NCBI GenBank assembly: GCA_963833535.1
Contig: CAWHYC010000006.1
Coordinates: 41,574-105,573, forward strand
Origin: an uncultured Chloroflexia bacterium
GTDB taxonomy: Bacteria > Chloroflexota > Limnocylindria > Limnocylindrales > CSP1-4
Reading direction: 5' to 3'
Length of the DNA: 64,000 nucleotides
Positions within the stretch are counted from its first letter, which is position 1, and each line of letters starts with the position of its first letter. The notes below the pieces were generated by a model that saw nothing but the letters and a program-made list of their open reading frames with translations, did no database searches and was not told where the DNA came from. The position numbers and the translations under genes are program-made. Shown here piece by piece: positions 12,313 through 63,354 of this stretch.

Positions 12313-13497
12313 GTGCGCGCGCTGTGCATCGATGTCGGCACGGGCACCCAGGACATCCTCCTCTTCGACGCCGCCAGGGAGGTCGAGAACGCCTTCCGGA
12401 TGGTCCTTCCATCGCCGACGGTCCTGATCGCCGACCGCGTCCGCAGAGCGACGGTGGCCGGCCAGTCGGTCGTGCTGCGTGGTTCGATGATGGGCGGGGG
12501 GCCGTCGGCCTGGGCCATCCGCGACCATGCGCTGGCTGGCCTGCCGGTCGCGGCCACGGCCGCTGCTGCCCGGACGCTGGACGACGATCTCGATGGCGTG
12601 CGCAGCCTCGGCGTCCGGATCGTCGACGACGGTGAGGCCGCCGAGCTGGCCGCGTGGCCCGGCACCCTGGCCCTCCACTTGCGCGACATCGCCCTCGACG
12701 ACCTGGCCGCCGCGCTCGCTCGTTACGACATCGACCTTCGGACCATCGATGCGCTGGCGGTGGCGGTCTTCGATCATGGCGCCGCGCCGCCGGGTATCTC
12801 CGATCGACGCTTTCGTTTCGAGCGGCTCGCCGAGCGGCTGCGCGAGGAGCCCGAAGCCGGGCCGGCCGCCTTCGCCTACGCCGAGGGCACGATCCCGGCG
12901 CCGTTCACGCGGCTCCAGGCCGTCACGACCGACGCCCGTGCCTGGCTTGGCGAACAAGCCGAGACGGTGATCGTGGCCATGGATACGGGGCCTGCCGCCG
13001 TGCTCGGCGGCCTCGAGGATCCGGCGCCACGAGCCGCCCTGCGGGGTGGTCGGGAGGTCGTGGCCGTCAACGTCGGGAACTTCCACACCCTCGCTGTCCG
13101 CCTGGCGCCGGCGCCCGCTTCGGCCAGCGGCTGCCGGATCGCGTCGATCTACGAGCACCACACCGGCGAGATCGACGACGTCGGTCTCCAGCGTGACGTG
13201 GCAAGGGTCGCCGACGGCACCATCGACGGCGAGGCGGTCTTCGCCTCCATGGGCCACGGCGCGTTGATCGTCGCTCAGCCCGCGCGCTCGAGGCTCGGGC
13301 CGCTGGTCTCGGTCACGGGGCCACGGCGAGCGCGTCTGGTCGGCCGGAAGATCCGCCGGGCAGGCGTCGCTCTGGCGGCGGTGCCGCACGGCGACATGAT
13401 GCAGGCCGGTCCGTTCGGGCTCCTGCGCGCCCTGGCCACACGGCATGAGGTATGGCGCGAGCCGATCGAGCAGCGGCTCGGTACCATCGGCGGATGA
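12313..13497 (+). CDS. DUF1786-like ASKHA-fold protein (hypothetical)
   Basis: N-terminal LCIDVGTGTQDILLFD phosphate-1-like motif. GTG start. Confidence 0.45.
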   Translation: MRALCIDVGTGTQDILLFDAAREVENAFRMVLPSPTVLIADRVRRATVAGQSVVLRGSMMGGGPSAWAIRDHALAGLPVAATAAAARTLDDDLDGVRSLGVRIVDDGEAAELAAWPGTLALHLRDIALDDLAAALARYDIDLRTIDALAVAVFDHGAAPPGISDRRFRFERLAERLREEPEAGPAAFAYAEGTIPAPFTRLQAVTTDARAWLGEQAETVIVAMDTGPAAVLGGLEDPAPRAALRGGREVVAVNVGNFHTLAVRLAPAPASASGCRIASIYEHHTGEIDDVGLQRDVARVADGTIDGEAVFASMGHGALIVAQPARSRLGPLVSVTGPRRARLVGRKIRRAGVALAAVPHGDMMQAGPFGLLRALATRHEVWREPIEQRLGTIGG

Positions 13498-40437: not shown

Positions 40438-41438
40438 GATGACCATGAACCGCGACCGGGGCGGCCTCAAGTGGGACAGGGCGGCCCGCTACCTCAAGGT
40501 CGCGATGATCCTGCACGCCCATCCCGAGGGCATCAGCGCCCAGCAGATCGCCGACCAGATCGGGGTCTCCAAGCGCACCGCCTATCGCGATCTGCAGGCC
40601 ATGGACAACGATGCCGAGCTGCCTATCTGGCAGGACAAGGGTCGCTGGGGCCTGGAGGCCGGCGCCTTCCTGCCGCCGCTCAACCTGACGACGCATGAGG
40701 CGATGGCCCTCTTCCTCGCAGCACGTGTGCTGGCCAAGGCGAGTGACGAGCTCGACAGCGAGCTGATCGCCGCCTTCCTCAAGCTCGGTGGCGTCCTGCC
40801 CGGTGTGCTCGGCGAACACGTCCAGTCGACCATCGACGCGTTCGCCGCGACCCGAACCGTGGACGAGCACTTCACGCGGGTGCTGCGCACGCTGACCGAG
40901 GCCTGGGCTGGGCGTCGCGTCGTCGAGATCGTCTACGGCGCCGGGGTCTACGACACGGCCAAGGAGGTCCGGCGGGCCCGCGTGCGTCCGTACCTCGTGG
41001 AACCCTCCGCCCTGACCCATGCGCTCTATCTCATCGGCTGGGACGAGGCGCGACAGGCGCGACGCACCTTCAAGGTCGAGCGCATCCTCGAGGCTGCGCT
41101 GACACCAGACACGTTCGAGCCGGACGCCGGCTGGGACCCGCGTATCGGCCATGCGCGACGGTTGGGACGTCATCGCCGACCAACCCATCGAGGTCATCGC
41201 GGTGCGCTTCTCGCCGACCGTCGCGCGACGCGTGGCGGAGACGACCTGGCATCCCAGCCAGCGGCTCGAGTGGCATCACGACGGCAGCCTGACATGGCAC
41301 GGCCGGGTGGCCGGGACGCACGAGATCCGTATCTGGATCCTGGGCTGGGGAGCCGACGCCACGGTCGTGGCCCCGCGCGCGCTGCGCGACTCCGTTGTCG
41401 ACGAGCTCGCCCGGGCCGTCGCTGCCTACGAGGCCTGA
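40438..41438 (+). pseudogene. HTH–WYL-domain transcriptional regulator (YafY-like) with an apparent +1 frameshift near 41140–41160
   Basis: N-terminal HTH (ISAQQIADQIGVSKRTAYRDLQ) and a WYL-like middle region in one frame. The conserved C-terminal domain (WDVIADQPIEVIAVRFSP...WHPSQRLE) continues in the +1 frame from 41151. Confidence 0.55.
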
Positions 41439-49994: not shown

Positions 49995-51217
49995 CGCACG
50001 AATACGACGGCTCGTCGCTCGACCTGGAGCGGGCGCTCGTCCGCTACATGGCGGAGCGACGCGTCAGCCGGCGGGAGCTCTTGCAGCGGATCGCGGCGGT
50101 GGGGGCGACCGCGGCCCTGGCGCCGGTCGTCGCCGCCTGCACGACCGGCGGCGCAGCAAGCGAGTCACCGTCAGCCGCGGCCGTCGCTTCGTCAGCCCCC
50201 ACGGCGACGAGTGGCCCGACGGCCAGCCCCGTCCCCACGCCCGCGCCGTCGCCGGAGAGCGAGCTGCTCATCTACAACTACTCGGGCTACATGGCCCCTG
50301 AGGTCATCGACGCGTTCGAGCAGAAGTACGGCGTCAAGGTCAGCGAAAGCTACTTCGACTCGTACGACGTCATGTATCCCAAGATCCAGGCCGGCAACAG
50401 CGGCTACGACCTGACCTTCCCGACCGACACCGACATCCCGGGCCTCGTCACGCAGGGCCGCGTCCAGCCCCTGGACAAGACGCTCATCCCCAACATCGTC
50501 AATCTGGCCGAGGACTGGCTGCACCCGGCCTACGACCCCGACCACACCTACTCGATGCCCTACATGTGGTGGACGACCGGGGTCGCCTACGACACCGAGA
50601 AGTTTCCCGAGCCGCCGACCAGCCTGGCTGCGCTGTGGGATCCGCAGTTCAAGAACCACATCATGATGCTCGACGATCAGCGCGAGGCGTTCGCAGCCGC
50701 CCTCATCCGCCTCGGCAAGGACGTCAACACCGTCATCGACGCCGAGCTCGACGCGGCATTGGCGCTACTCAAGGAACAGAAGCCGTTGCTGCGGCTGTAC
50801 GCCCCCGATCCGATCAGCGAGATGTCGTCGGGCGACATCTGGATCGGACAGGAGTGGTCAGGGGACGTCTATTCCATCCAGCAGGAGCGCCCGTCGGTCT
50901 CCTACTACATCCCCGAGGAGGGTGGCGTTCGCGGATCCGACGCCGCAGTGGTCCTCCAGGGTGCACCGCACCCCATCGCCGCCACGCTGTTCATCAACCA
51001 CCTGCTCGATGCCCAGATGAGTGCCCTGAACACGAATGCCATCGGCTACATGGGCCCCAACGCCGCTGCCAAGGAATTCATCGACCCGGCCATCCTCGCC
51101 GACCCGACCGTCAACCCCGACCAGGCGCTCATCGCCAAGCTGCAGGAGCTGCTCGACCCTGGTGCCGACCTGGAGAAGTACTCCACACGCTGGACCGAGC
51201 TCCGGGCGGGTGGGTAG
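49991..51217 (+). CDS. potD: spermidine/putrescine ABC substrate-binding lipoprotein
   Basis: Tat-like RRELLQR signal with lipobox VAAC, and a PotD/PotF-type binding protein fold. Confidence 0.85.
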   Translation: MTHEYDGSSLDLERALVRYMAERRVSRRELLQRIAAVGATAALAPVVAACTTGGAASESPSAAAVASSAPTATSGPTASPVPTPAPSPESELLIYNYSGYMAPEVIDAFEQKYGVKVSESYFDSYDVMYPKIQAGNSGYDLTFPTDTDIPGLVTQGRVQPLDKTLIPNIVNLAEDWLHPAYDPDHTYSMPYMWWTTGVAYDTEKFPEPPTSLAALWDPQFKNHIMMLDDQREAFAAALIRLGKDVNTVIDAELDAALALLKEQKPLLRLYAPDPISEMSSGDIWIGQEWSGDVYSIQQERPSVSYYIPEEGGVRGSDAAVVLQGAPHPIAATLFINHLLDAQMSALNTNAIGYMGPNAAAKEFIDPAILADPTVNPDQALIAKLQELLDPGADLEKYSTRWTELRAGG

Positions 51218-52930: not shown

Positions 52931-54101
52931 TCAGCCCAGCGGGATGGCCTTCTTGGCGTCGAGGAAGGGGATGGCGGCCGTCCGGGCGGCCCAGCGATCG
53001 CCGTCGGGGGCCAGGATCTCGAGCGGCGTACCGGGCGCAGCCAGCTCGATGGGCACCCAGACGTAGCCGATGTTGCGCTCCAGCCGCGGCGACCAGATGA
53101 GGTCGGTCAGGGTACCGACCGGCTGGCCGTCGTGGAGCGCGGGCCGCTTGTCGGCGATCTCGAACGAGAGCGCATCGCCGTCGACCTCGATGCCGACGAG
53201 CTTGCGGCTGACGCCGCGCTGGCGGATCTCCTCGAGGGCGGCCTTGCCGATGTAGTCGGCGTCCTGGGTCTCGACCAGGCGCTCCAGGCCCATGACCTCG
53301 AAGGGGTTGTTGGCGATGGTCATGTCGGAGCCGTAGTTGAAGATGCCGGCCTCGATGCGGCGCGCCTCGCAAGGCGCGATGGGTCGGATGTCGTGCGGAC
53401 GCCCAGCCTCCATGACCCGGTCCCAGAGATCGCCGCCGCGCGATGCATCGCGCAGGTAGATCTCGTAGCCGACCTCACCGGTCCAGCCGGTCCGGCTGAT
53501 GACCACGGGGATCTTGTCGAGCTCCGTGGTCATCGTCCAGTAGTACTTGATGTCGAGGACCGCGTCGCCGAAGAGCGTGCGCATGACGTCCTTCGACTTC
53601 GGGCCTTGGACCTGGATGGGGTAGATCTCCGGCTCGCGGACCGTGACGTCGAGCCCCGAGTTGATGGCCACGCCGCGCGCCCAGAGGCCGGCGTCGCTAT
53701 CGGCCAGGGCCAGCCACCAGCGATCCGCCTCGACGCGGAGCAGGACCGGGTCGTTGACGATGCCGCCGTCCTCGGCCGTGATGAGCACGTACTTGCCCTG
53801 GCCGACCGCGCACTTCGTGAGATCGCGACAGGTCAGCCTGTTGGTGAAGGTCGATGCGTCGGGCCCGGTGATCTCGACGATCCGCTCGACCGACACGTCC
53901 CAGACCGTGACCGCGTTGAGGAGGTGCCAGTACTCCTCGATCGGGTCGGCGAAGTAGCCGGGCAGGTACATGTGGTTGTAGATGTCGTAGGCCGAGCAGC
54001 CGGCCGCCAGGGTGCGATCGAAGAACGGCGAGCGCCGGTACCAGGGGCCGAAGTAGAGGGTGCTCGAGGTCGCCTGGGGGACGGTCTGGATCGCGCTCAT
54101 C
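52931..54101 (-). CDS. aminomethyltransferase-family protein (GcvT/DmdA-like, tetrahydrofolate-dependent)
   Basis: GcvT fold motifs (ISRTGWTGEVGYEI; CEARRIEAG). Confidence 0.8.
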
Positions 54102-54134
54102 GGGTCTCCTTGCTGGGCGGGGACAGCCTGAATC

Positions 54135-56374
54135 CTACGACGGGGAGCCGGACGCAGGCGCATCGACGACGATGAGGGCGTCAACGGCGATGGCACCGGC
54201 GGGGCCGGCGATGACCGGGTTAAGGTCGACGTCGCGCCAGGCGGGATGATCGACCATCGCGCGGCCGAGGTCGCAGATGAGCTGCGCGAGCGCGGCCAGA
54301 TCGGCCGCCGGTCGGCCGCGGACACCGCGCAGGACGGCGGCGCCGCGCAGCTCGTCGATCATCGACAGGACGTCGCTCGGGGTCAGCGGCGCCAGCCTGA
54401 TGACGACGTCGTCGAGCACCTCGGCGAGCACGCCACCCAACCCGACGAGCACGACCACCCCGAACTGCGGGTCACGGCGGGCGCCCACGATGACCTCCGT
54501 CCCGCCAGCGACCATGGCCTGGACGAGGACGCCACGGATCGTGGCTCCCACCCGTCGACCGGCCCCGACGACCGCCACGACCGCCCCCCGGACGGCGTCG
54601 GGGTCTGCGAGGCCAAGGACGACCGCGCCGACGTCGCTCTTGTGCGCCAGGTCCCGCGCGTCGAGCTTGACCACTACCGGCCAGCCTATCGCGGTCGCCG
54701 CTTCGGCTGTCGCGTCGGCCGCCGCGGCAAGGGCGCCCGTCGAGACGTCGACGACGGGGATCGCGCGCCAGGTCACCACGGGCAGCCCGAGCGAGCCCAG
54801 CGACTCGAGGGACTCGCGCTCCGGTATGGCCCGCACGCTCGACGCGGCAGGCTCGAGGGCTGGGACGGATCGGTCGTAGCCGTACGGTGTCCGGTCGGCG
54901 GCCAGCGCCGTCCACGCCGCTCGCGCCGGCCCAACGACGGCGCGACGCTCACGGCGAGCTTCCCACCACGCCAACCGGGCGATGGCCGCGAAGGCCGGGA
55001 CCGAGCCGCGCACGATGGGGATGCCGCCGGCGGCATCGAGCGCCTCCTGCAGCTCCGGCGATGCGTCGCCGGAGGTCAGCGAGACGTAGACCGGCAGCAC
55101 GTCGGCGTGGTCCGCGGTCGCCGTCGCCAGCTCGCCGGCCAGCTCGAGGGCCAGGCTCAGCTCGCCGGGCTGCGAGCGGAACGGGAAGTCGTGGACCAGG
55201 GCCAGCACGTCGTAGGCTCCGGAGGTGGTGAACGCCTCGAAGCAGGTGCGGTACGCCGGCGTGGCCTCGTCCGCCCCCCAGGGGTCCATGGGGTTGCCGA
55301 TGTAGCCCAGGCTGGGCAACGCGGCGGCGATCCGGGCACGGGCGGCGTCCGGGACGTCCGGCAGGTCGATGCCGGTCCGCGCGGCCAGGTCGGCGATGAG
55401 CGAGCCCTCCCCGGTCGAGACGGTGACCACCGCCGTCCGGCCCCGGCCCACGCGACGACCGAGCCGGTGTGCCCCGGTGACGAGGGCGGCGGCCTCCAGG
55501 AGCTCGTCGAGGTCGTCACAGCGGATCACGCCTGCCGCGCGTAGGGCCGCCTGGGTGACGCGATCCTCGCCGGCCAGCGATCCCGTGTGCGCGACGGCCG
55601 CCGCCTGCGCCTGGGCGCTGCGACCGACCTTGACGGCCAGGATCGGCTTGCCCATCGCGAGGGCCTGGTCGGCCAGGGCGAGGAACCGCTCCGGGCCGCT
55701 TGAAGCCCTCGACGAAGAGGACCACGGCATCGGTCGAGGGATCGTCGAGGCAGTAGGCCAGGTAGTCGCACAGGTCGAGCACGACCTCGGAGCCGCAGCT
55801 GACGATGCGGCTCCAGCCGATGCGCGTGCCGGCGTGCATGAACGCGTCGGCGACGCTGCCCGACTGGGCGATGGCCGCCACGCCGCCGCGCCGGATGAAC
55901 GGATGGATCTCGTCGATGTACGTCGCGCAGCCGGTCGTGAGGTCGATGAGGCCCATGCAGTTGGGGCCGAGGATGGCGGTCCCGGTGGCGCGCGCGATCT
56001 CGGCCACCTCGGCCTGCATCCGCGCCGCGGCCTCGCCGCCCTCGACCACGCCGCCACCCGGGATGACCACGGCCGGGACGCCGGCGGCCGCCGCCTCGCG
56101 CGTGAACGGCGCCGCGCGCAGCGGGATTGACGGCCAGGACGACGGTGTCGGGCACCTCGGGCAGCGAGGCGAGGTCCGGATGGCAGGGCGTGCCGTCGAT
56201 CTCGTCGTACTTCGGGTTCACGAAGTAGCAGCGCGTCGGGGCACCCGAGCAGCGCGGATGTTGTCGCGGACGCGTGGTCGCCAGGTCGCCCCGCGGCGAG
56301 GCGCCGACGATGGCCACCGAGCGAGGCGCGAAGAGCGCGCGCAGGTCGAAGCGTGGCTCGGTGGCGGCCGTCAC
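54135..56374 (-). pseudogene. acyl-CoA synthetase (NDP/ADP-forming, fused alpha-beta) disrupted by two apparent +1 frameshifts
   Basis: Three consecutive reading frames carry, in order, the CoA-binding N-terminus (SVAIVGAS...VNPKYDEIDG), the middle part (GPNCMGLID...), and the ligase and ATP-grasp parts (KPILAVKVGRS...). The breaks lie at about 56075–56130 and about 55695–55700. Confidence 0.6.
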
Positions 56375-57548
56375 CCGACCACCCGATCGACCCCCCGTCG
56401 CTCGAGCGACCGGGCGATGATCAGGCGCTGGATCTCGGACGTGCCCTCCCAGATCCGATCGACGCGCAGCTCGCGCAGGTAGCGCTCGGGGGCGAAGTCA
56501 CGCATGTAGCCGCGGCCACCGAAGACCTGCACGACCCGGTCGGCGCAGCGGTAGGCGGCCTCCGAGGCGAAGAGCTTGGCGATCGATGCCTTGGCATGGA
56601 CGACCTTGGGGTCGGCACCGGTGTCGGCCAGCCAGGCGCACTCGCGGGTCAGGGCACGGGCCGCGGCCGCGTCGGCCGCCGAGTCGGCCAGCGGGAAGCT
56701 GACGCCCTGGAAGTCGTAGATGCGTTGCCCGAACTGGATCCGGCTCGTGGCCCATTCGACGGCCAGCGTCAGCAGCCGCTCCATGGCGCCGGTGCACCTG
56801 GCCGCGATGTGGATGCGCTCCTCGACGAACCAGGCGTTGGTCAGCTCGTCCGCCTGGCCGACGCCGCCGAGGACGGCCGAGTCGGGCACGCGCACGTCTT
56901 CGAGCGCGAACTGCGGGTGCCGGTCGGCGAAGGTGTGGGTGTGGTCGGGGTCGGCCAGGATTCGCAGGCCAGGCGTGTCGTAGTCGACCAGGAAGAGGGT
57001 CGCGCCGCGCGGCTCGCCGTCGGTGGCGAGGGCGTGGAAGATCATGAAGTCGGTGTCGTCGGGGCCGGTCACGAACCACTTCTCGCCGTTCAGGACCCAC
57101 TCGCCCCTGGCCGCATCGCGCACGGCGGTGGCACGGATGCTCCGGGCGTCCGATCCGGCCTCGGGCTCGGTGATCGCATAGCTGCCCGAATCGCTCGCCG
57201 CGCAGGCACGGATCGAGGTAGCGCGCGCCGTTGCTCGGCGTCGCCGTGGACGAGCACGTTGTAGGCATCGGGCACGAGCGTCCAGAGGCCGCCGGTCGAC
57301 TGGCCGAACTGCTCGTGGACGAGGACCTGCTCGAGGACCGACCAGCCGTGCCCGCCGTAGGCGGTGGGAAAGGCGCCACCGGCCAGGCCAGCTGCGATCG
57401 ATCGCTCTCGGAGCTGGGCGCTGTCCTCGGCCGAGACACGCCCTCCGGCACGCTCCAGCGCCTCCTCCCGGGGCTGGAGCTCGTCGACCACGAAACGGCG
57501 AGCTCGGTCGCGCAGGTCTTCCTGCGCTGGCGTCAGGGTGAGGTCCAC
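56371..57548 (-). pseudogene. acyl-CoA dehydrogenase disrupted by two apparent +1 frameshifts within about 50 nt
   Basis: The N-terminal domain lies in one frame (to ...GDAEQRRA), about 13 codons in a second frame (RYLDPCLRGERFG), and the rest (SYAITEPEAGSDA...) in a third. The breaks are at about 57220–57230 and about 57184–57188. Confidence 0.6.
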
Positions 57549-57597
57549 GGGTCGCTCGTCGCACCCTCGATCGGTCGTGCCCAGGCACGACCGTCGG

Positions 57598-59224
57598 TCA
57601 GGCGCGGCCTCCGGTGCTGGCGCGATCCTTGAGGATCTGGCCGGCCGCCAGCTTGCCCGGCGCGCCCATCACGCAGCCGCCCGGGTGGGTCCCCGAGCCA
57701 CACTGGTAGTAGCCGTCGATCGGCGTCCGGTACTGCGACCAGCCGGGGGCCGGGCGGAAGAAGAACATCTGCGGCGCCAGGAACTCACCGGCGAAGATGT
57801 TGCCCTCCGAGAGACCGACGGTGCGCTCGATGTCGAGCGGCGTGCGCACCTCGCGCTGCAGGACCAGGTCGCCGAAGCCAGGGAAGAACGACTCCAGGGT
57901 GGCCTGCACGGTGTCGCCAAGGTTCTCCTTCTCGGCGTCCCAGTCGCTCTTGCGCAGGTGGTAGGGCGCGTACTGGATGAAGCAGCTCATGACCGCCTTG
58001 CCCGGCGGCGCCATGTCCGGGTCGACCTCGGACTGCACGGCGCGTGTCGATGTACGGCCGCTTCGAGTACCAGCCGTACTTGGCGTCGTCGTAGGCGCGC
58101 TCGAGGTACTCCATCGAGGGGCCGATGTTGGTGAAGCCGCGGTACTGGTCGGTCCGGTCGCCGAGGGCCGGGTACTTGGGCGGCGCGTCGAGCGCGAAGT
58201 TGACCTTGGCCGAGGTGCCCTGGAAGCGGAAGCGGCGAATGTTCTCGACGAGGTCCGTGGGCAGCTCGCGCGGCTCGACCAGCTCCATGAACGTGCGTCG
58301 CGGGTCGAGCGCGGAGACGACCACCGGCGCCAGGAACTCGGTGCCGTCGGCGAGGGCGACGCCGGTTGCCCGACCGTCGCGCGTGATGACGTGATCGACG
58401 GCTGAGTCGAGTCGGATCTCCGCACCCAGCGCCTGGGCGGCCCGCGAGAGGACCTGCGTGAAGCCGCCGTTGCCGCGCTTGTGGAACGACCAGGCGCCCA
58501 TCTCGCCATCGTGCTCACCGAGGATGTGGTACAGCAGCACGAGCCCCGAACCCTGCGAGTAGGGCCCGACCTTGGTGCCGATGATGCTCGACGAGGCCAG
58601 GTAGCCCTTCAGGATGTCCGACTCGAAGTAGTCGTCCAGGAAGTCGGCCGCCGAGCCGGTCAGCAGGCGGACCGCGTCATGGAGCACCTTGCGGTCCATC
58701 TTCCGGAAGCGCTGACCGAGGGCCGCCAGCGCGACGAGCTCCTCCGGGTCGTCGCTGAAGAGGTCGGGTGGGACCTGGTCGAGGAGCGGCTTCAGCGCTC
58801 GTAGGACCTGGTTGACGTCGTGGTTGAAGGCGTCGTACGCGTCGGCGTCGTGCGGGCTGTGGCGGGCGATCTCTTTGAGGTTCTCGCCGTGATCCTGGCC
58901 GAGCAGCAGGTAGTCGCCGTTCTCCATCGGACAGAAGGTGGTCGGCATGAGGATGGGCATGAAGCCGTGCTTGACCAGGTCGAGGTCCTGCACGATGTCG
59001 GGCCGCAGCAGGCTCAGGGCATAGGAGAAGGTCGTGAACCAGAAGCCCGGCCGCAGCTCCTCCGTGATGGCCGCGCCGCCGACGAACGGGCGCCGCTCGA
59101 GGATCAGCGTGCGCAGGCCGGCCTTGGCCAGGTACGACCCGTTGACGAGGCCGTTGTGGCCGCCGCCGATGACGATCGCGTCGTAGCTCCGGTCGGCCTT
59201 CGTGGTGGCCTTCGTCTTGGGCAT
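57598..59224 (-). pseudogene. CrtI-family NAD(P)/FAD-dependent oxidoreductase with one apparent +1 frameshift
   Basis: FAD motif YDAIVIGGGHNGL near the N-terminus. The C-terminal 300 aa continue in the next frame after ...KRPYID, at about 58045–58060. Confidence 0.6.
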
Positions 59225-59225
59225 C

Positions 59226-60425
59226 TCAGGCCGTCCTTCGCTCGGGGTTGAAGAGTGGCAGGCGCGTCACGTGCGCGTCGAAGTATTCGTAGCGGTGGTT
59301 GACGGCCAGCTCGAGCTTGACGCGTGAGCCGGGCGCCAGGTGGTCGAGCGGGACCCGGGCCAGCGCGATGTGGCGCTGGAGCATCGGCGAGTACATCTGG
59401 CTGGTGGCATAGCCGAGCTGGTTCAGCTCGTCGTCGTAGATGTAGTACTCGTCCTGGATGGGGGTGTGGTCCTTGGGCGGGATGAGGCCCGCCTGGTCGT
59501 AGATCCGGTCGTACTCGCGCCAGTCGACGACGAGGCCGGTCAGCTTCCAGCGCGAGGTCTTGTCGGCCAGCTCGCGGCGGAGGGCGTCGCGTCCGATGAA
59601 GAGCCGCTCGTCGGCCTCGATCCCGCGCAGCATCCAGCCCAGGCCGAGCTCGACCGGCGTCGTGCGCTGGGCATCCGTCCACGCGTAGCGGCTCGACTGG
59701 AAGTCGACGTCGAGGAGGACGAGGCCGGCCTCGATGCGCGCCATGTAGAGGGCGATCATGCCGATGGGGATGACGTGGCGACCACGACCCGCCGCCCAGA
59801 TCGCATCCCACAGCGCCAGGGCATCCTCGCTCCTGACCCAGATCTCGTAGCCCAGGTCGCCCGTGTAGCCGGTCCTCGAGACGCGCACGGGGATCTTGGC
59901 GATCTTGGTCGTCAGGTGGCCGAAATAGGGCAGCTCGGCGACGCCACGGGCGATCGGCGCCAGCAGATCGCGCGCACGCGGACCCTGGACGGCCAGCACG
60001 GCCCACTGGTCGGAGACGTCCTCGATGCCGACGTCGAGCCGCCCGACGAGTGCCTCGAAATAGGCGAGGTTCGGCTCTGCCGCAGTGAGCAGGTACTCGT
60101 CCTTGGCGTGGCGCAGGACGACGCCGTCCTCGACCACGAAGCCGCGGTCGTCGCACCAGGCGGTGTACTGCGCATGACCGGGCTGACAGGTCCGGATGTC
60201 GCGCGTCAGCACGCCGGCCAGGAAGCGCTCGGCGTCCGGCCCGGCGATGCGGTACTTGTAGAGCGGCGACGAGTCGAAGAGGCCGGCGCTGTTGCGGATG
60301 GCGAAGTACTCGAACTTCTCCGACATCTGATAGCGGGTCGCGGCCAAGTGGTTCGACCAGTGCTCCCAGAGGCCGGTCTCGTTGAGCGGGGCGAGGCGCT
60401 CGTAAAAGGGCGTGGTCCGGATCAT
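59226..60425 (-). CDS. aminomethyltransferase-family protein (GcvT-like), second paralog
   Basis: GcvT motifs (VSRTGYTGDLGYEIW) in an intact frame. Confidence 0.8.
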   Translation of the reverse strand: MIRTTPFYERLAPLNETGLWEHWSNHLAATRYQMSEKFEYFAIRNSAGLFDSSPLYKYRIAGPDAERFLAGVLTRDIRTCQPGHAQYTAWCDDRGFVVEDGVVLRHAKDEYLLTAAEPNLAYFEALVGRLDVGIEDVSDQWAVLAVQGPRARDLLAPIARGVAELPYFGHLTTKIAKIPVRVSRTGYTGDLGYEIWVRSEDALALWDAIWAAGRGRHVIPIGMIALYMARIEAGLVLLDVDFQSSRYAWTDAQRTTPVELGLGWMLRGIEADERLFIGRDALRRELADKTSRWKLTGLVVDWREYDRIYDQAGLIPPKDHTPIQDEYYIYDDELNQLGYATSQMYSPMLQRHIALARVPLDHLAPGSRVKLELAVNHRYEYFDAHVTRLPLFNPERRTA

Positions 60426-60435
60426 GGGCGGCTCG

Positions 60436-61818
60436 CTAGCCCGTGGCCTGGCCGGCGGTCGGCCGGTTCGCCGTCGACGCCGAAGCGCCGGCGACCGCTC
60501 GAGCCTCCAGGGCCGCGTCCAGCGCGACCTCGAAGATGCCGACCACGCGATCGATGGTGTCGCCGGCGGCGTGCAATTCGGACAGGAACCACGGCTCGCG
60601 CGAGTCCGGTTCCGGCATCGCACCGCGCAGGATCATCTGCCACACGACCTCGTCGTAGAGGTCGTGGTCGGTGTCGACCCAGCCTCGATAGTCGGTCGGC
60701 GCAGCCTCAGCGAAGACGATGCCAAACATGATGGGATGACCGCTGAACACATGCGGCACACTGCGCTCGGTCATCACCTCGTGGAGACCCGCCTGGAGAC
60801 GCCGGCCGGTGCCATCGATGATGGCCAGGGCTTCTGTGTCTCGAAGGATGCGCAGCGTGGCCACGGCCGCCGATGCCGCGATGCGGTTCCCGGCGTACGT
60901 ACCACCATGGCTGACCCGCTCTGGCAGGAGGCTCATCACGTCCCGCCGACCGCCGAAGGCGGCGGCTGGATAACCGTTGGCCAATGCCTTGGCGTACGTG
61001 GCAAGGTCCGGCGTCACGCCGTATAGCTCGGCGGCACCGCCGCGGGCGAGGCGGAAGCCGGTCTTGACCTCGTCGAAGATGAGCAGGGCGCCGTACTCGC
61101 TGGTCAGCGCGCGGAGCTCGTCGAGGAACCCCGGGCGCGGCAGCAGCGCCTGGGCGTTGCCGAGGATCGGCTCCACGATGACCGCCGCGATGCGATCGCC
61201 TTCGCGCTCGAACACCCGTTGTAGCGCCGCGATGTCATTGAATGGCACCGGGATCACGGTCTGCGCGACGACTTCCGGGATGCCTCGGCCCTGGACGAAG
61301 CGGAGCGGATCGTCGCGTTCGCCCAGTTCGGTGGCCTCGTCGGGCGAGGCGAGCGCGTAGTCATGGACCCCGTGGTAACCGCCCTCGAACTTCACGATCC
61401 GGTCGCGGCCGGTGAAGGCCCGCGCGAGGCGCATGGCATGCATGGTGGCCTCGGTACCCGAGACCGTCAGACGGGCCATGTCACAGAAGGTCAGCTCGGT
61501 GATCAGCTCGCAGGCCTGGACCTCGTCCTCGCTGGTCAGGCTGAAGCTGATGCCGCGGGAGAGTCGCTCGATGACATGGGCGTCCACGCGCTCGTCGGCA
61601 TGCCCCAGGATGGCCGGACCGTAGCCCATGCGCAGGTCGATGTACTCGTTGCCGTCGATGTCCCAGATCGTCGCGCCCTTGCCACGGTCGACGTAGACCG
61701 TGTCCGCGTCCCAGATCCGGAAGTTCGAGTCGGCCCCGCCGGGCATGACGCGCAGCGCACGACGGTACATCTCGGCTTGGCGTTCACGGGCGAGGGGCGT
61801 GAGGGGCTTGACGGTCAT
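60436..61818 (-). CDS. class III PLP-dependent aminotransferase (glutamate-1-semialdehyde aminomutase-like)
   Basis: PLP lysine context IFDEVKTGFR and the GSA-aminomutase/ω-transaminase fold. Confidence 0.8.
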   Translation of the reverse strand: MTVKPLTPLARERQAEMYRRALRVMPGGADSNFRIWDADTVYVDRGKGATIWDIDGNEYIDLRMGYGPAILGHADERVDAHVIERLSRGISFSLTSEDEVQACELITELTFCDMARLTVSGTEATMHAMRLARAFTGRDRIVKFEGGYHGVHDYALASPDEATELGERDDPLRFVQGRGIPEVVAQTVIPVPFNDIAALQRVFEREGDRIAAVIVEPILGNAQALLPRPGFLDELRALTSEYGALLIFDEVKTGFRLARGGAAELYGVTPDLATYAKALANGYPAAAFGGRRDVMSLLPERVSHGGTYAGNRIAASAAVATLRILRDTEALAIIDGTGRRLQAGLHEVMTERSVPHVFSGHPIMFGIVFAEAAPTDYRGWVDTDHDLYDEVVWQMILRGAMPEPDSREPWFLSELHAAGDTIDRVVGIFEVALDAALEARAVAGASASTANRPTAGQATG

Positions 61819-61953: not shown

Positions 61954-63354
61954 ATGCCCGAAGCGCCCACTCCCGACAGCCGCGCGGCCGCGTTCCTGGC
62001 TGCCCTTCGCGATGCGTTGCCAGACCTCGACCTGTCTGTCGACCGGGTCGAGTGGCGGCCTTCCGGTACGACGAGACCGAGTACACCTATCCCGGCTGGC
62101 CACTGGCGGTAGCGCTGCCGCGAACCACCGCGGAGGTCGCGACGATCGTCAGCCTGGCCGCCCGCCACGGCGTGCCGATCGTGCCACGCGGGGCCGGCAG
62201 CGGGCTTTCCGGTGGTGCCACGGCGGTCGACGGGGCGCTGACCCTGGTGACCACGAAGATGGATCACATCGTGGAGATCGACACCGCAAATCTCGCCGCG
62301 GTCGTCCAGCCGGGCGTCATCAACGCAGACCTCGGCCGAGCGGCCGCGTCGCACGGCCTGTTCTATGCCCCGGACCCCGCCAGCTTCGAGATCTGCACCA
62401 TCGGCGGCAACCTGGCCGAGAACTCGGGCGGCCTGCGCTGCGTCAAATACGGCGTCACTCGCGACGCCGTCCTCGGCCTCGAGGTCGTGCTCGCCGACGG
62501 CAGCGTCATCCGGACCGGTGGTCGAACGGTCAAGGACGTGGCCGGCTACGACCTGACGCACCTCTTCGTCGGCTCGGAAGGCACGCTGGGCATCATCACC
62601 GAGGCGACCCTGCGGCTGCGCCCGATGCCCGCCGAGAAGCTGACCGTGCTGGCCTTCTTCGCCAGCGTCGCGGCGGCCGGCGACGCGGTCGCCGCGGATC
62701 ACCGCCGCGGGCATCGTGCCCGTGACCCTCGAGCTGATGGATCGTTTCACCATCCGTGCGGTCGACGATGCCGCGCACCTCGGGCTCGACCGGGACGCGG
62801 GCGCGATGCTGATGATCGAGTCCGATGCCGGCGGCGCCGCGGCGGAGGAGGAGCTCGATCGTGCCGAGCGCGCGTGCAGCGAGGCCGGGGCGACCAGCCT
62901 GGTGCGAGCCAAGGATCCGACCGAGGCCGACTGGCTGCGCCAGGCACGACGTGCCGCGCACAGCTCGCTCGAGCGGGCCGGCGTGGCGCGCATGGACGAC
63001 GTCGGCGTGCCCCGCTCGCGCGTGCCGGAGATGCTGGCTGCCATCGAGCGCATCAGCGCCATGCACGATCTGCCGGTCGGGGTCTTCGGCCACGCCGGCG
63101 ACGGCAACCTGCATCCGACGTTCGTCGTCGATCGCGACGACCCCACCGCGGAGTCGCGCATCAACAGCGCGCGCGCCGCCATCTACCAGGCGGCCATCGA
63201 CCTCGGCGGCACGATCACGGGTGAGCACGGCACGGGCATCGCCAAGCGTGCCTACCTCGAGGCGCAGCTCGGACCCCGGGCGGTGGAGGTGATGCGCTCG
63301 CTGAAGACGGCCCTCGACCCACAGGGCATCCTGAACCCGGGGAAGGTGCTCTAG
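61954..63354 (+). pseudogene. FAD-linked oxidase (GlcD / D-lactate dehydrogenase family) with a compensating −1/+1 frameshift pair
   Basis: The N-terminal 35 aa and the C-terminal about 210 aa share one frame. The central FAD-binding domain (AVALPRTTAEV...PRGAGSGLSGGA...) is read −1 from them, between about 62060 and about 62700. Confidence 0.6.

Follow-up and report, generated by a model that had tools for sequence, protein, structure and literature searches.

The window analysed here, a stretch of 64,000 nucleotides from contig CAWHYC010000006.1 of an uncultured Chloroflexia bacterium, held a conserved cluster of five genes on the minus strand. Its first gene encoded a GcvT-like aminomethyltransferase of 399 aa (59226..60425) and its last a second, DmdA-like GcvT aminomethyltransferase of 389 aa (52931..54100). 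Both were intact. Between them lay genes for a CrtI-like flavoprotein of the amine-oxidase family (57598..59224), an acyl-CoA dehydrogenase (ACAD; 56371..57548) and an NDP/ADP-forming acyl-CoA synthetase (ACS; 54135..56374). A class-III aminotransferase of 460 aa (60436..61818, minus strand) adjoined the cluster as one uninterrupted ORF, and transaminase models matched along its whole length. Both GcvT paralogues showed one frame against their orthologues in tblastn. The first-pass annotation had described these flanking genes as intact, and they were.

The CrtI-like protein, 541 aa after removal of one base, contained the Pfam domains Amino_oxidase and NAD_binding_8. It stayed under the family cut-offs, with 263 bits against 1000 for CrtO and 90 against 238 for crtI_fam. 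'CrtI-like' is a label for the fold, not for a function. The corrected ACAD comprised 391 aa, equal to its orthologues, and its N-terminal, middle and C-terminal ACAD domains in Pfam were all complete. Every one of its best NCBIfam matches, AcrC-like and others, was under its cut-off. The corrected ACS of about 744 aa (744/745) united CoA_binding_2, Succ_CoA_lig and ATP-grasp_5 in one chain in Pfam and reached no NCBIfam equivalog cut-off. The cluster resembled the DMSP demethylation set DmdA/DmdB/DmdC in combining a GcvT-family methyltransferase, nearest to the DmdA model, with an ACAD and a CoA ligase step. However, the ligase in the window was NDP-forming, not AMP-forming, and the cluster had an extra GcvT paralogue and the CrtI-like flavoprotein. 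The DmdA-like protein scored 328 bits against the DmdA cut-off of 410, and any function assigned to the cluster would be putative.

Codon-position GC profiles and ORF maps revealed frame changes inside the three adjacent minus-strand genes for the CrtI-like protein, ACAD and ACS. In DNA alignments with the orthologous sequences of L003-L007, L010 and L011, five breaks were found, each a single extra base private to the window, at 58045, 57225, 57187, 56126 and about 55697. The CrtI-like gene occupied two frames, and tblastn with intact orthologues located the break at 58041-58046. The extra nucleotide (58042..58045, minus strand) appeared as GACAC[G]CGCC in the window versus GACAC-CGCC in the closest relative. 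The corrected protein was 85-92% identical to intact homologues, of which there were more than 100, and aligned ungapped across the junction RPYIDTAVQSEVDPDMAPPGK. The ACAD gene was placed by tblastn in three frames, -3 and -2 among them, with breaks at about 57225 and 57187 caused by two extra bases approximately 38 nt apart. The first of these (57225..57227, minus strand) fell in the run CGGCGCGCGC, where orthologues read CAGC-GCGCGCGC or CGGCG-GCGC. The second (57185..57188, minus strand) was located in GATTCGGGC; compared with L007 (CGA-TCGGGG) the simplest reading is an added T, with an added G as the alternative. The ACS gene ran through three frames, with tblastn breaks at about 56124 and 55693. 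One of its two ORF-breaking bases (56126..56129, minus strand) gave GTCAA[T]CCCGCTG where orthologues had GTCAA-CCCGCTG. The other (55692..55697, minus strand) gave AAGCGGCCCG[G]AGCGG, versus GGCCC-GAGCGG in L007 and AAGCG-CCCAGAGCGG in L003.

A compensated set of extra bases was also present near the N-terminus of ACS (56255..56272, minus strand), comprising +1 at 56272 (ACCAC[G]CGTCC) and a +2 change around 56255-56256. About 6 codons were garbled before the frame was regained, and the conserved VRDNI motif was legible only in the alternative frame. All 8 extra bases of the cluster were private to the window compared with L003-L007, L010 and L011. Their removal yielded proteins of orthologue length that could be aligned ungapped with intact orthologues. 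Runs at the break sites reached 3-4 nt at most. Relative to the closest relative, two events were most simply T insertions, in ATTC at about 57187 and in AATCCC at about 56126. The insertion context C[G]CG recurred; with about 16 sites in a genome of 70% GC, this context was not treated as established. A public protein collection held broken fragments of these genes, namely a 479-aa CrtI-like protein (P0241) and a 506-aa C-terminal part of ACS (P0122).

Most of the first-pass annotation's account of the cluster was reproduced. It had claimed five breaks in three genes, and tblastn and DNA alignments placed them where it had, at about 58045, 57225, 57187, 56126 and 55695. Each was a 1-nt insertion as described, one extra base absent from every orthologue, and the homology that it had called seamless across the frames continued ungapped in the corrected proteins. 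Beyond the five breaks that it counted, the ACS N-terminus contained three further extra bases, at 56272 and 56255-56256, which cancel each other out. Its statement that all insertions lie in G/C repeats applied to some sites and failed for the two probable T insertions (~57187 and ~56126), and no run exceeded 4 nt. The remaining 55 kb or so, which it had considered intact, carried +1 breaks in two further genes.

Neither gene is related to the cluster; one lay 14 kb upstream of the cluster breaks and the other 5 kb downstream. A WYL/WCX transcriptional regulator (40439..41438, plus strand) had a +1 break at about 41147. The split was called on Pfam architecture and on a homologue of 27% identity in L002. 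The first ORF contained the HTH and WYL domains and the second the WCX domain, and the joined protein had all three domains and matched the L002 homologue in architecture and length. A GlcD-like FAD-linked oxidase (62052..63354, plus strand) was broken by +1 at about 62697. Its joined protein matched FAD_binding_4 and the full FAD-oxidase_C profile, and aligned ungapped across the junction with the glycolate oxidase 9qgz. Frameshift candidates were flagged using a GC3 Viterbi detector, and the translations were read to weed out false positives. Four flags were rejected in this way: a low-complexity N-terminus of an M23 peptidase (30.7-31.05 kb), a Thr/Pro-rich lipoprotein linker (45952), an imprecise gene boundary (48103) and a variable region without indel versus L003 (54916-54960). 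At low penalty, the detector also flagged the short stretches 13020-13052 and 50133-50226.

All seven ORF-breaking events in the window were +1. Five of the seven were situated inside 2,350 nt (P ~2e-4, simulation), and this dense 2.35 kb contained three further extra bases. The dense stretch, 55.7-58.0 kb, had a GC content of 0.718. This value was only the 75th percentile of windows of the same size, and GC was rejected as the reason for the clustering.

The five-gene cluster was intact in four relatives, including the sole identifiable MEGAHIT-named contig, L010. This contig bears a k141-style name and is the only relative whose name identifies a short-read assembler. L003, a JGI contig with 90% nucleotide identity, had an intact ACS gene without the extra base at 55697; the sole gap in the coding alignment was the extra base of the window. 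The closest relatives in the genome collection were L007 (MFD00392.bin.2.404) and L011 (MFD02199.bin.1.52), both Nanopore-only Microflora Danica MAGs. By homology, they carried +1 frameshifts of their own in the cluster, at least five in L007 and at least four in L011, at positions differing from those of the window. All 16 alignment-verified cluster events were insertions (seven in the window, five in L007 and four in L011). Per 22 kb, the GC3 detector returned 10 candidates in L007, 10 in L011 and 18 in L036, mostly +1, versus 0-1 in L001, L004, L005, L006, L010 and L012. Among the relatives without this signature, only L010 carries a name that points to a short-read assembler; L004, L005 and L006 carry none that does. 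The Microflora Danica relatives L008 and L009 had intact ACAD and ACS genes. The segment of ACAD, ACS and the second GcvT gene was absent from L001, L002 and L041. L041/P0247, with 95% amino acid identity, lacked the disruption of the window. L042, an independent but noisy contig from a close relative, lacked the extra base at six of the eight comparable sites and was ambiguous at two. Its use as a same-species reference, suggested by 97% identity over the CrtI-like N-terminus, was rejected at 0.63x coverage and 204 gap openings in 13.8 kb, and it was considered usable site by site only. Altogether, the disruptions of the window were not common to its close relatives L007, L003, L041/P0247 and L042. 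The comparison with orthologous loci that the first-pass annotation had proposed thus showed breaks absent from the orthologues and genes in a single frame outside the Nanopore MAGs.

On the basis of these sequence comparisons, the frame breaks are very likely spurious insertions in the consensus of a long-read metagenome assembly of a high-GC Limnocylindria-like soil bacterium, and not mutations of the organism. We infer, from the source contig of 205,896 bp being in NCBI and ENA like the large MFD contigs and from the nearest relatives being MFD-LR MAGs, that the source assembly was most probably Nanopore-only, of the type produced by Flye with one round of Medaka. Each artefact would add one base and the gene caller would then split the gene. 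The real genome would most likely encode an intact GcvT-like protein, CrtI-like flavoprotein, ACAD, NDP-forming ACS and DmdA-like GcvT paralogue. Assembly error is favoured over gene decay because the same type of extra base breaks other genes of the window and sister long-read genomes, and because the extra bases are private, are all insertions and are accompanied by no substitution-level decay in the CrtI-like protein. Of the two alternatives that the first-pass annotation had offered, pseudogenisation and locally clustered assembly errors, the second is preferred here, without its confinement to three genes.

Nanopore consensus indels are a known source of frameshifted gene calls, and near-finished R10.4 genomes need approximately 40x depth (PMC9262707). 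The Microflora Danica MAGs were assembled from Nanopore reads only, using Flye and one Medaka polishing round, and their authors described Nanopore-associated errors at lower coverage (PMC12313526). The window resembled such consensus frameshifts, the problem addressed by the IDEEL test (PMC9262707, PMC12313526), in its single-base indels private to one assembly, its adjacent split ORFs across which homology continued, and the scatter of these over unrelated genes. The rate also varied among MAGs of one project, with the other relatives examined being clean. It departed from the classic description of long homopolymers and low-GC genomes, as the GC content here is about 70% and runs did not exceed 4 nt. 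The verified events were insertions only, several in a C[G]CG-like context, and were dense over 2.35 kb. Three observations run counter to an assembly error. The density in 55.7-58.0 kb was far above that of the rest of the window. Long homopolymers are the classic error context of Nanopore sequencing, and no site was a long homopolymer. The intact L008 and L009 indicate that the artefact was not universal in the MFD dataset.

The local density might, as a guess, stem from fewer usable reads at this place or from collapsed strain variants. The latter would be a sub-case of consensus error, and a tentative one. Variants, some without ACAD, ACS and the second GcvT gene, may have been co-assembled, so that few consistent reads remained and the polisher kept spurious insertions. 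This would account for the local density, which GC content does not explain, and it agrees with the differing content of the cluster among close relatives. However, the dense stretch at 55.7-58.05 kb was out of register with the variable segment at 52.9-57.6 kb, and the entire second GcvT gene, like the 3' 1.5 kb of ACS, was clean.

True and very recent pseudogenisation, in which a catabolic cluster under relaxed selection gained independent single-base insertions in this strain, is unlikely. The breaks were strongly clustered in three adjacent and probably co-transcribed genes, the ACAD, ACS and second GcvT genes are dispensable in some relatives (missing from L001, L002 and L041), and real mutation and error look alike without reads. 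As in bacterial frameshift pseudogenes of reductive evolution, adjacent genes of one pathway were broken by small indels. Such pseudogenes differ from the present case, which showed insertions only, no stops or truncations and relatives not sharing the lesions. Despite eight extra bases, the corrected ORFs contained no truncation and no stop codon was found in any corrected protein. The CrtI-like protein, the one protein tested, showed no relaxed constraint. It had nine private changes at otherwise invariant sites, compared with 1-10 in eight homologues and thus no excess of missense changes; one of the nine, a conservative change, was downstream of the break. Mira, Ochman and Moran reportedly described bacterial mutation as deletion-biased in 2001, whereas all events here were insertions. 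The same lesion also occurred in the unrelated WYL regulator and GlcD-like oxidase and, at other sites, in the sister Nanopore MAGs of the same project and in no other relative examined, and the contig of the close relative L042 lacked the extra bases at six of eight sites. It is still less probable that the extra bases are real in the sense that a natural Limnocylindria-like population has just inactivated a conserved GcvT/flavoprotein/ACAD/ACS catabolic cluster via a local burst of insertions. If true, mutation in this high-GC lineage would have to be biased towards insertions and focused locally.

It is extremely improbable that full-length proteins are still made by programmed +1 ribosomal frameshifting or by transcriptional slippage: every break was +1 with homology unbroken across it, and read-through would need a +1 shift as in prfB, but no site was conserved, orthologues outside the Nanopore-only MAGs were single-frame, two Nanopore MAGs broke elsewhere, and the five sites shared no heptamer, slippery, stop or rare-codon context. 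No repeat of more than 4 nt was available for slippage, the tract of about seven units or more of a slippage-prone contingency locus was not found (longest 3-4 nt), and Rfam gave no match between 53.5 and 60 kb, even with the threshold relaxed to E<=1, in agreement with the earlier remark that no programmed frameshift signals were obvious.

Under the favoured explanation of consensus insertion errors, the value of the finding is practical. In high-GC Nanopore-only MAGs of this lineage, errors outside long homopolymers are insertions only. Because the published quality check of the catalogue looks at coding density, low GC and long homopolymers, such errors would go unflagged. The fragments P0122 and P0241, listed publicly as separate 'proteins', show how such errors spread. 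A frame-aware scan using codon-position GC or homology would be useful before pseudogene, gene-content and selection analyses on such MAGs. Correction is advised for the cluster genes as well as for the genes of the WYL regulator and GlcD-like oxidase, which should be read neither as pseudogenes nor as gene loss. For the organism, the outcome is biologically ordinary, with five intact genes very probably present.

The GC content of the window is approximately 70%, and because the third-codon-position GC signal is so strong, the reading frame could be read directly from composition. Frames were mapped in two ways, from GC profiles by codon position and by Viterbi segmentation with seven states. 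In the 52.9–61.8 kb region, this identified six genes on the minus strand, with frame switches without a nearby stop codon at approximately 55692, 56126, 57187–57225 and 58040. In three-frame translations, homology moved into the next frame at each switch point. All switches were the effect of one extra base, the phase passing from 2 to 1 to 0 along the minus strand in the 5′ to 3′ direction. Removal of one base at each of five sites yielded three stop-free minus-strand proteins: a flavoprotein of 541 aa with Amino_oxidase and NAD_binding_8 domains, an acyl-CoA dehydrogenase (ACAD) of 391 aa with all three ACAD domains and an NDP-forming acyl-CoA synthetase (ACS) of 744/745 aa with CoA_binding_2, Succ_CoA_lig and ATP-grasp_5 domains. 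In tblastn with intact orthologues as queries, matches to the flavoprotein were spread over two frames, and those to the ACAD and to the synthetase over three each. Both flanking GcvT-like genes, GcvT1 and the DmdA-like paralogue GcvT2, were in one frame. The frame breaks that the first-pass annotation had described in three adjacent genes are real and had even been understated.

MAFFT alignments with relatives, gene by gene and for the whole cluster, located window-private insertions at 58045, 57225, 57187, 56272, 56255–56256 (2 nt), 56126 and 55697. Neither set of alignments showed a deletion private to the window that shifts the frame of conserved coding sequence. Against L003, a JGI contig with 90% nucleotide identity, the sole gap in the coding alignment was exactly at 55697. 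The five sites listed previously were confirmed, but a compensated set at the synthetase N-terminus had been missed. It consists of +1 at 56272 and +2 at 56255–56256, which sum to three bases, so that the frame recovers. The ORF stays open with about six garbled codons, and the conserved TTVRDNI motif is legible in the alternative frame only. In the comparison with L007, the closest relative, the inserted base sometimes lengthens a G or C run of 2–3 nt and is most simply T at two sites. The longest run at any insertion site was at most 4 nt. At three sites, window 58045 and 56272 and cluster position 2619 of the related locus L011, a G was inserted between C and CG (CCG to CGCG). This recurrent C[G]CG context could reflect a systematic error related to basecalling or methylation, with too few sites to define a motif.

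The statement that the rest of the window is intact did not hold. The GC3 detector, i.e., the Viterbi segmentation on codon-position GC, flagged 41151 and 62698, and domain architecture and homologue alignment placed +1 breaks at approximately 41147 and 62697. The first splits a WYL/WCX transcriptional regulator (40439–41438), with HTH and WYL in one ORF and WCX in the next. Joined, it comprises 332 aa with all three domains, in architecture and length as in the homologue of the related contig L002. The second splits a GlcD-like FAD-linked oxidase (62052–63354), which after joining matches the FAD-oxidase_C profile over its full length and shows no gap at the junction when aligned with glycolate oxidase 9qgz. 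Five of the seven ORF-breaking +1 events in the window fall inside 2,350 nt, a clustering far from random (P about 2e-4), and the GC of this dense stretch is unremarkable (0.718, 75th percentile). Other GC3 flags in the window were rejected as false positives due to low-complexity protein segments or imprecise boundaries. At 13020–13052 and 50133–50226, short low-penalty flags briefly favoured another frame inside a long ORF; these could be either noise or additional indel pairs that compensate each other.

In a scan of genome collections, the nearest relatives were long-read MAGs of the Microflora Danica catalogue (MFD-LR): L007 (MFD00392.bin.2.404), L011 (MFD02199.bin.1.52), L008, L009 and L036. 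By homology, L007 carried one +1 break in GcvT1 and two each in flavoprotein and GcvT2, and L011 had +1 breaks in GcvT1, flavoprotein, synthetase and GcvT2, all at sites other than those of the window. All 16 alignment-verified events in the cluster were insertions (seven in the window, five in L007, four in L011). Per 22 kb, the GC3 detector gave, for the high-GC MAGs, 10 candidates in L007, 10 in L011 and 18 in L036, mostly +1, two in L009, none in L008 and 0–1 in L001, L004, L005, L006, L010 and L012; its own background was 0, 1 and 5 candidates in actinobacterial isolate loci. The MFD-LR MAGs are Nanopore-only assemblies, built with Flye and polished by one round of Medaka; their reads and assemblies are deposited under ENA BioProject PRJEB58634, and the catalogue authors report Nanopore-associated errors in MAGs of lower coverage (PMC12313526). 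It is known that indels in Nanopore consensus sequences lead to frameshifted gene calls, and near-finished R10.4 genomes need approximately 40x depth (PMC9262707).

Very probably, the breaks are bases wrongly inserted into the consensus of a long-read metagenome assembly. Their density at 55.7–58.05 kb could plausibly stem from a local drop in consistent read depth, and the absence of the ACAD-ACS-GcvT2 segment from some relatives may play a part. That the genes were truly inactivated, very recently, is very unlikely. Given the indel-to-substitution ratios and deletion bias of bacterial mutation, a gene drifting long enough for eight indels should also have accumulated numerous substitutions and a few stop codons, whereas the corrected ORFs had no stops and the flavoprotein no excess of private changes. 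The latter held nine private differences at sites where eight homologues agree, compared with 1–10 in the homologues themselves. Its changes were mostly conservative, and the 148 residues after the break contained only one of them. There was no sign of relaxed selection in the flavoprotein, the gene on which this was tested. Programmed frameshifting, for which the first-pass annotation had seen no signal, is excluded for practical purposes, as the sites lack conservation, a common motif and any slippery tract, and Rfam gave no match in 53.5–60 kb at E ≤ 1.

Intact homologues of the flavoprotein number more than 100, with 84–92% identity; several are named Chloroflexi or Candidatus Limnocylindrales, and the corrected protein aligns with homologues without gaps over the junction. 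The flavoprotein P0247, from the JGI contig L041, is intact and 95% identical. L042, a noisy independent contig of a close relative, lacks the extra base at six of eight comparable sites. This contig (NODE_4316_length_14983_cov_0.629957), of very low coverage and deposited in ENA and JGI, has the gene order of window 49.9–63.7 kb, but its alignment over 13.8 kb opens 204 gaps, and almost all of its genes are fragmented. The synthetase search retrieved P0122 (506 aa), 100% identical to the synthetase C-terminal fragment, and a 479-aa flavoprotein fragment, P0241, is likewise in the public collection; the public record thus already holds these genes as broken pieces.

The five-gene cluster encodes a GcvT-like protein of 399 aa, the flavoprotein (541–546 aa), ACAD (391 aa), synthetase (732–759 aa) and a second GcvT-like protein of 389 aa. 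In Limnocylindria-like Chloroflexota it was located at 52931–61818 in the window, 5941–13446 in L004, 5924–13488 in L006 and 1–6226 in L010. L004, L005 and L006 all retain the conserved cluster in fully intact form, as does L010, a MEGAHIT-named contig, in the portion that it covers. The cluster is flanked upstream by an aminotransferase or TetR gene and downstream by an ABC transporter. Some close relatives lack ACAD-ACS-GcvT2 and keep aminotransferase, GcvT and flavoprotein (L001 4900–7501; L002 10001–12555; L041 9998–13061). In L001, the gene immediately after that of the flavoprotein encodes a heliorhodopsin. The called flavoprotein of L002 (10001–12013) is 670 aa long and has a tail rich in arginine and serine without counterpart in any homologue; an indel in this contig has likely removed the stop codon. 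Ribonucleotide reductase genes of L001 (14053–16522) and L002 (18700–22013) contain one or two LAGLIDADG-domain inteins. In model searches, GcvT2 was nearest to the DMSP demethylase model with a score under the cut-off, and ACAD and synthetase reached no equivalog cut-off. The logic of the cluster is like that of DmdA/DmdB/DmdC, but its proteins miss all equivalog cut-offs. Judged from its sequence, the cluster looks like a predicted demethylation and CoA-dependent catabolic pathway.
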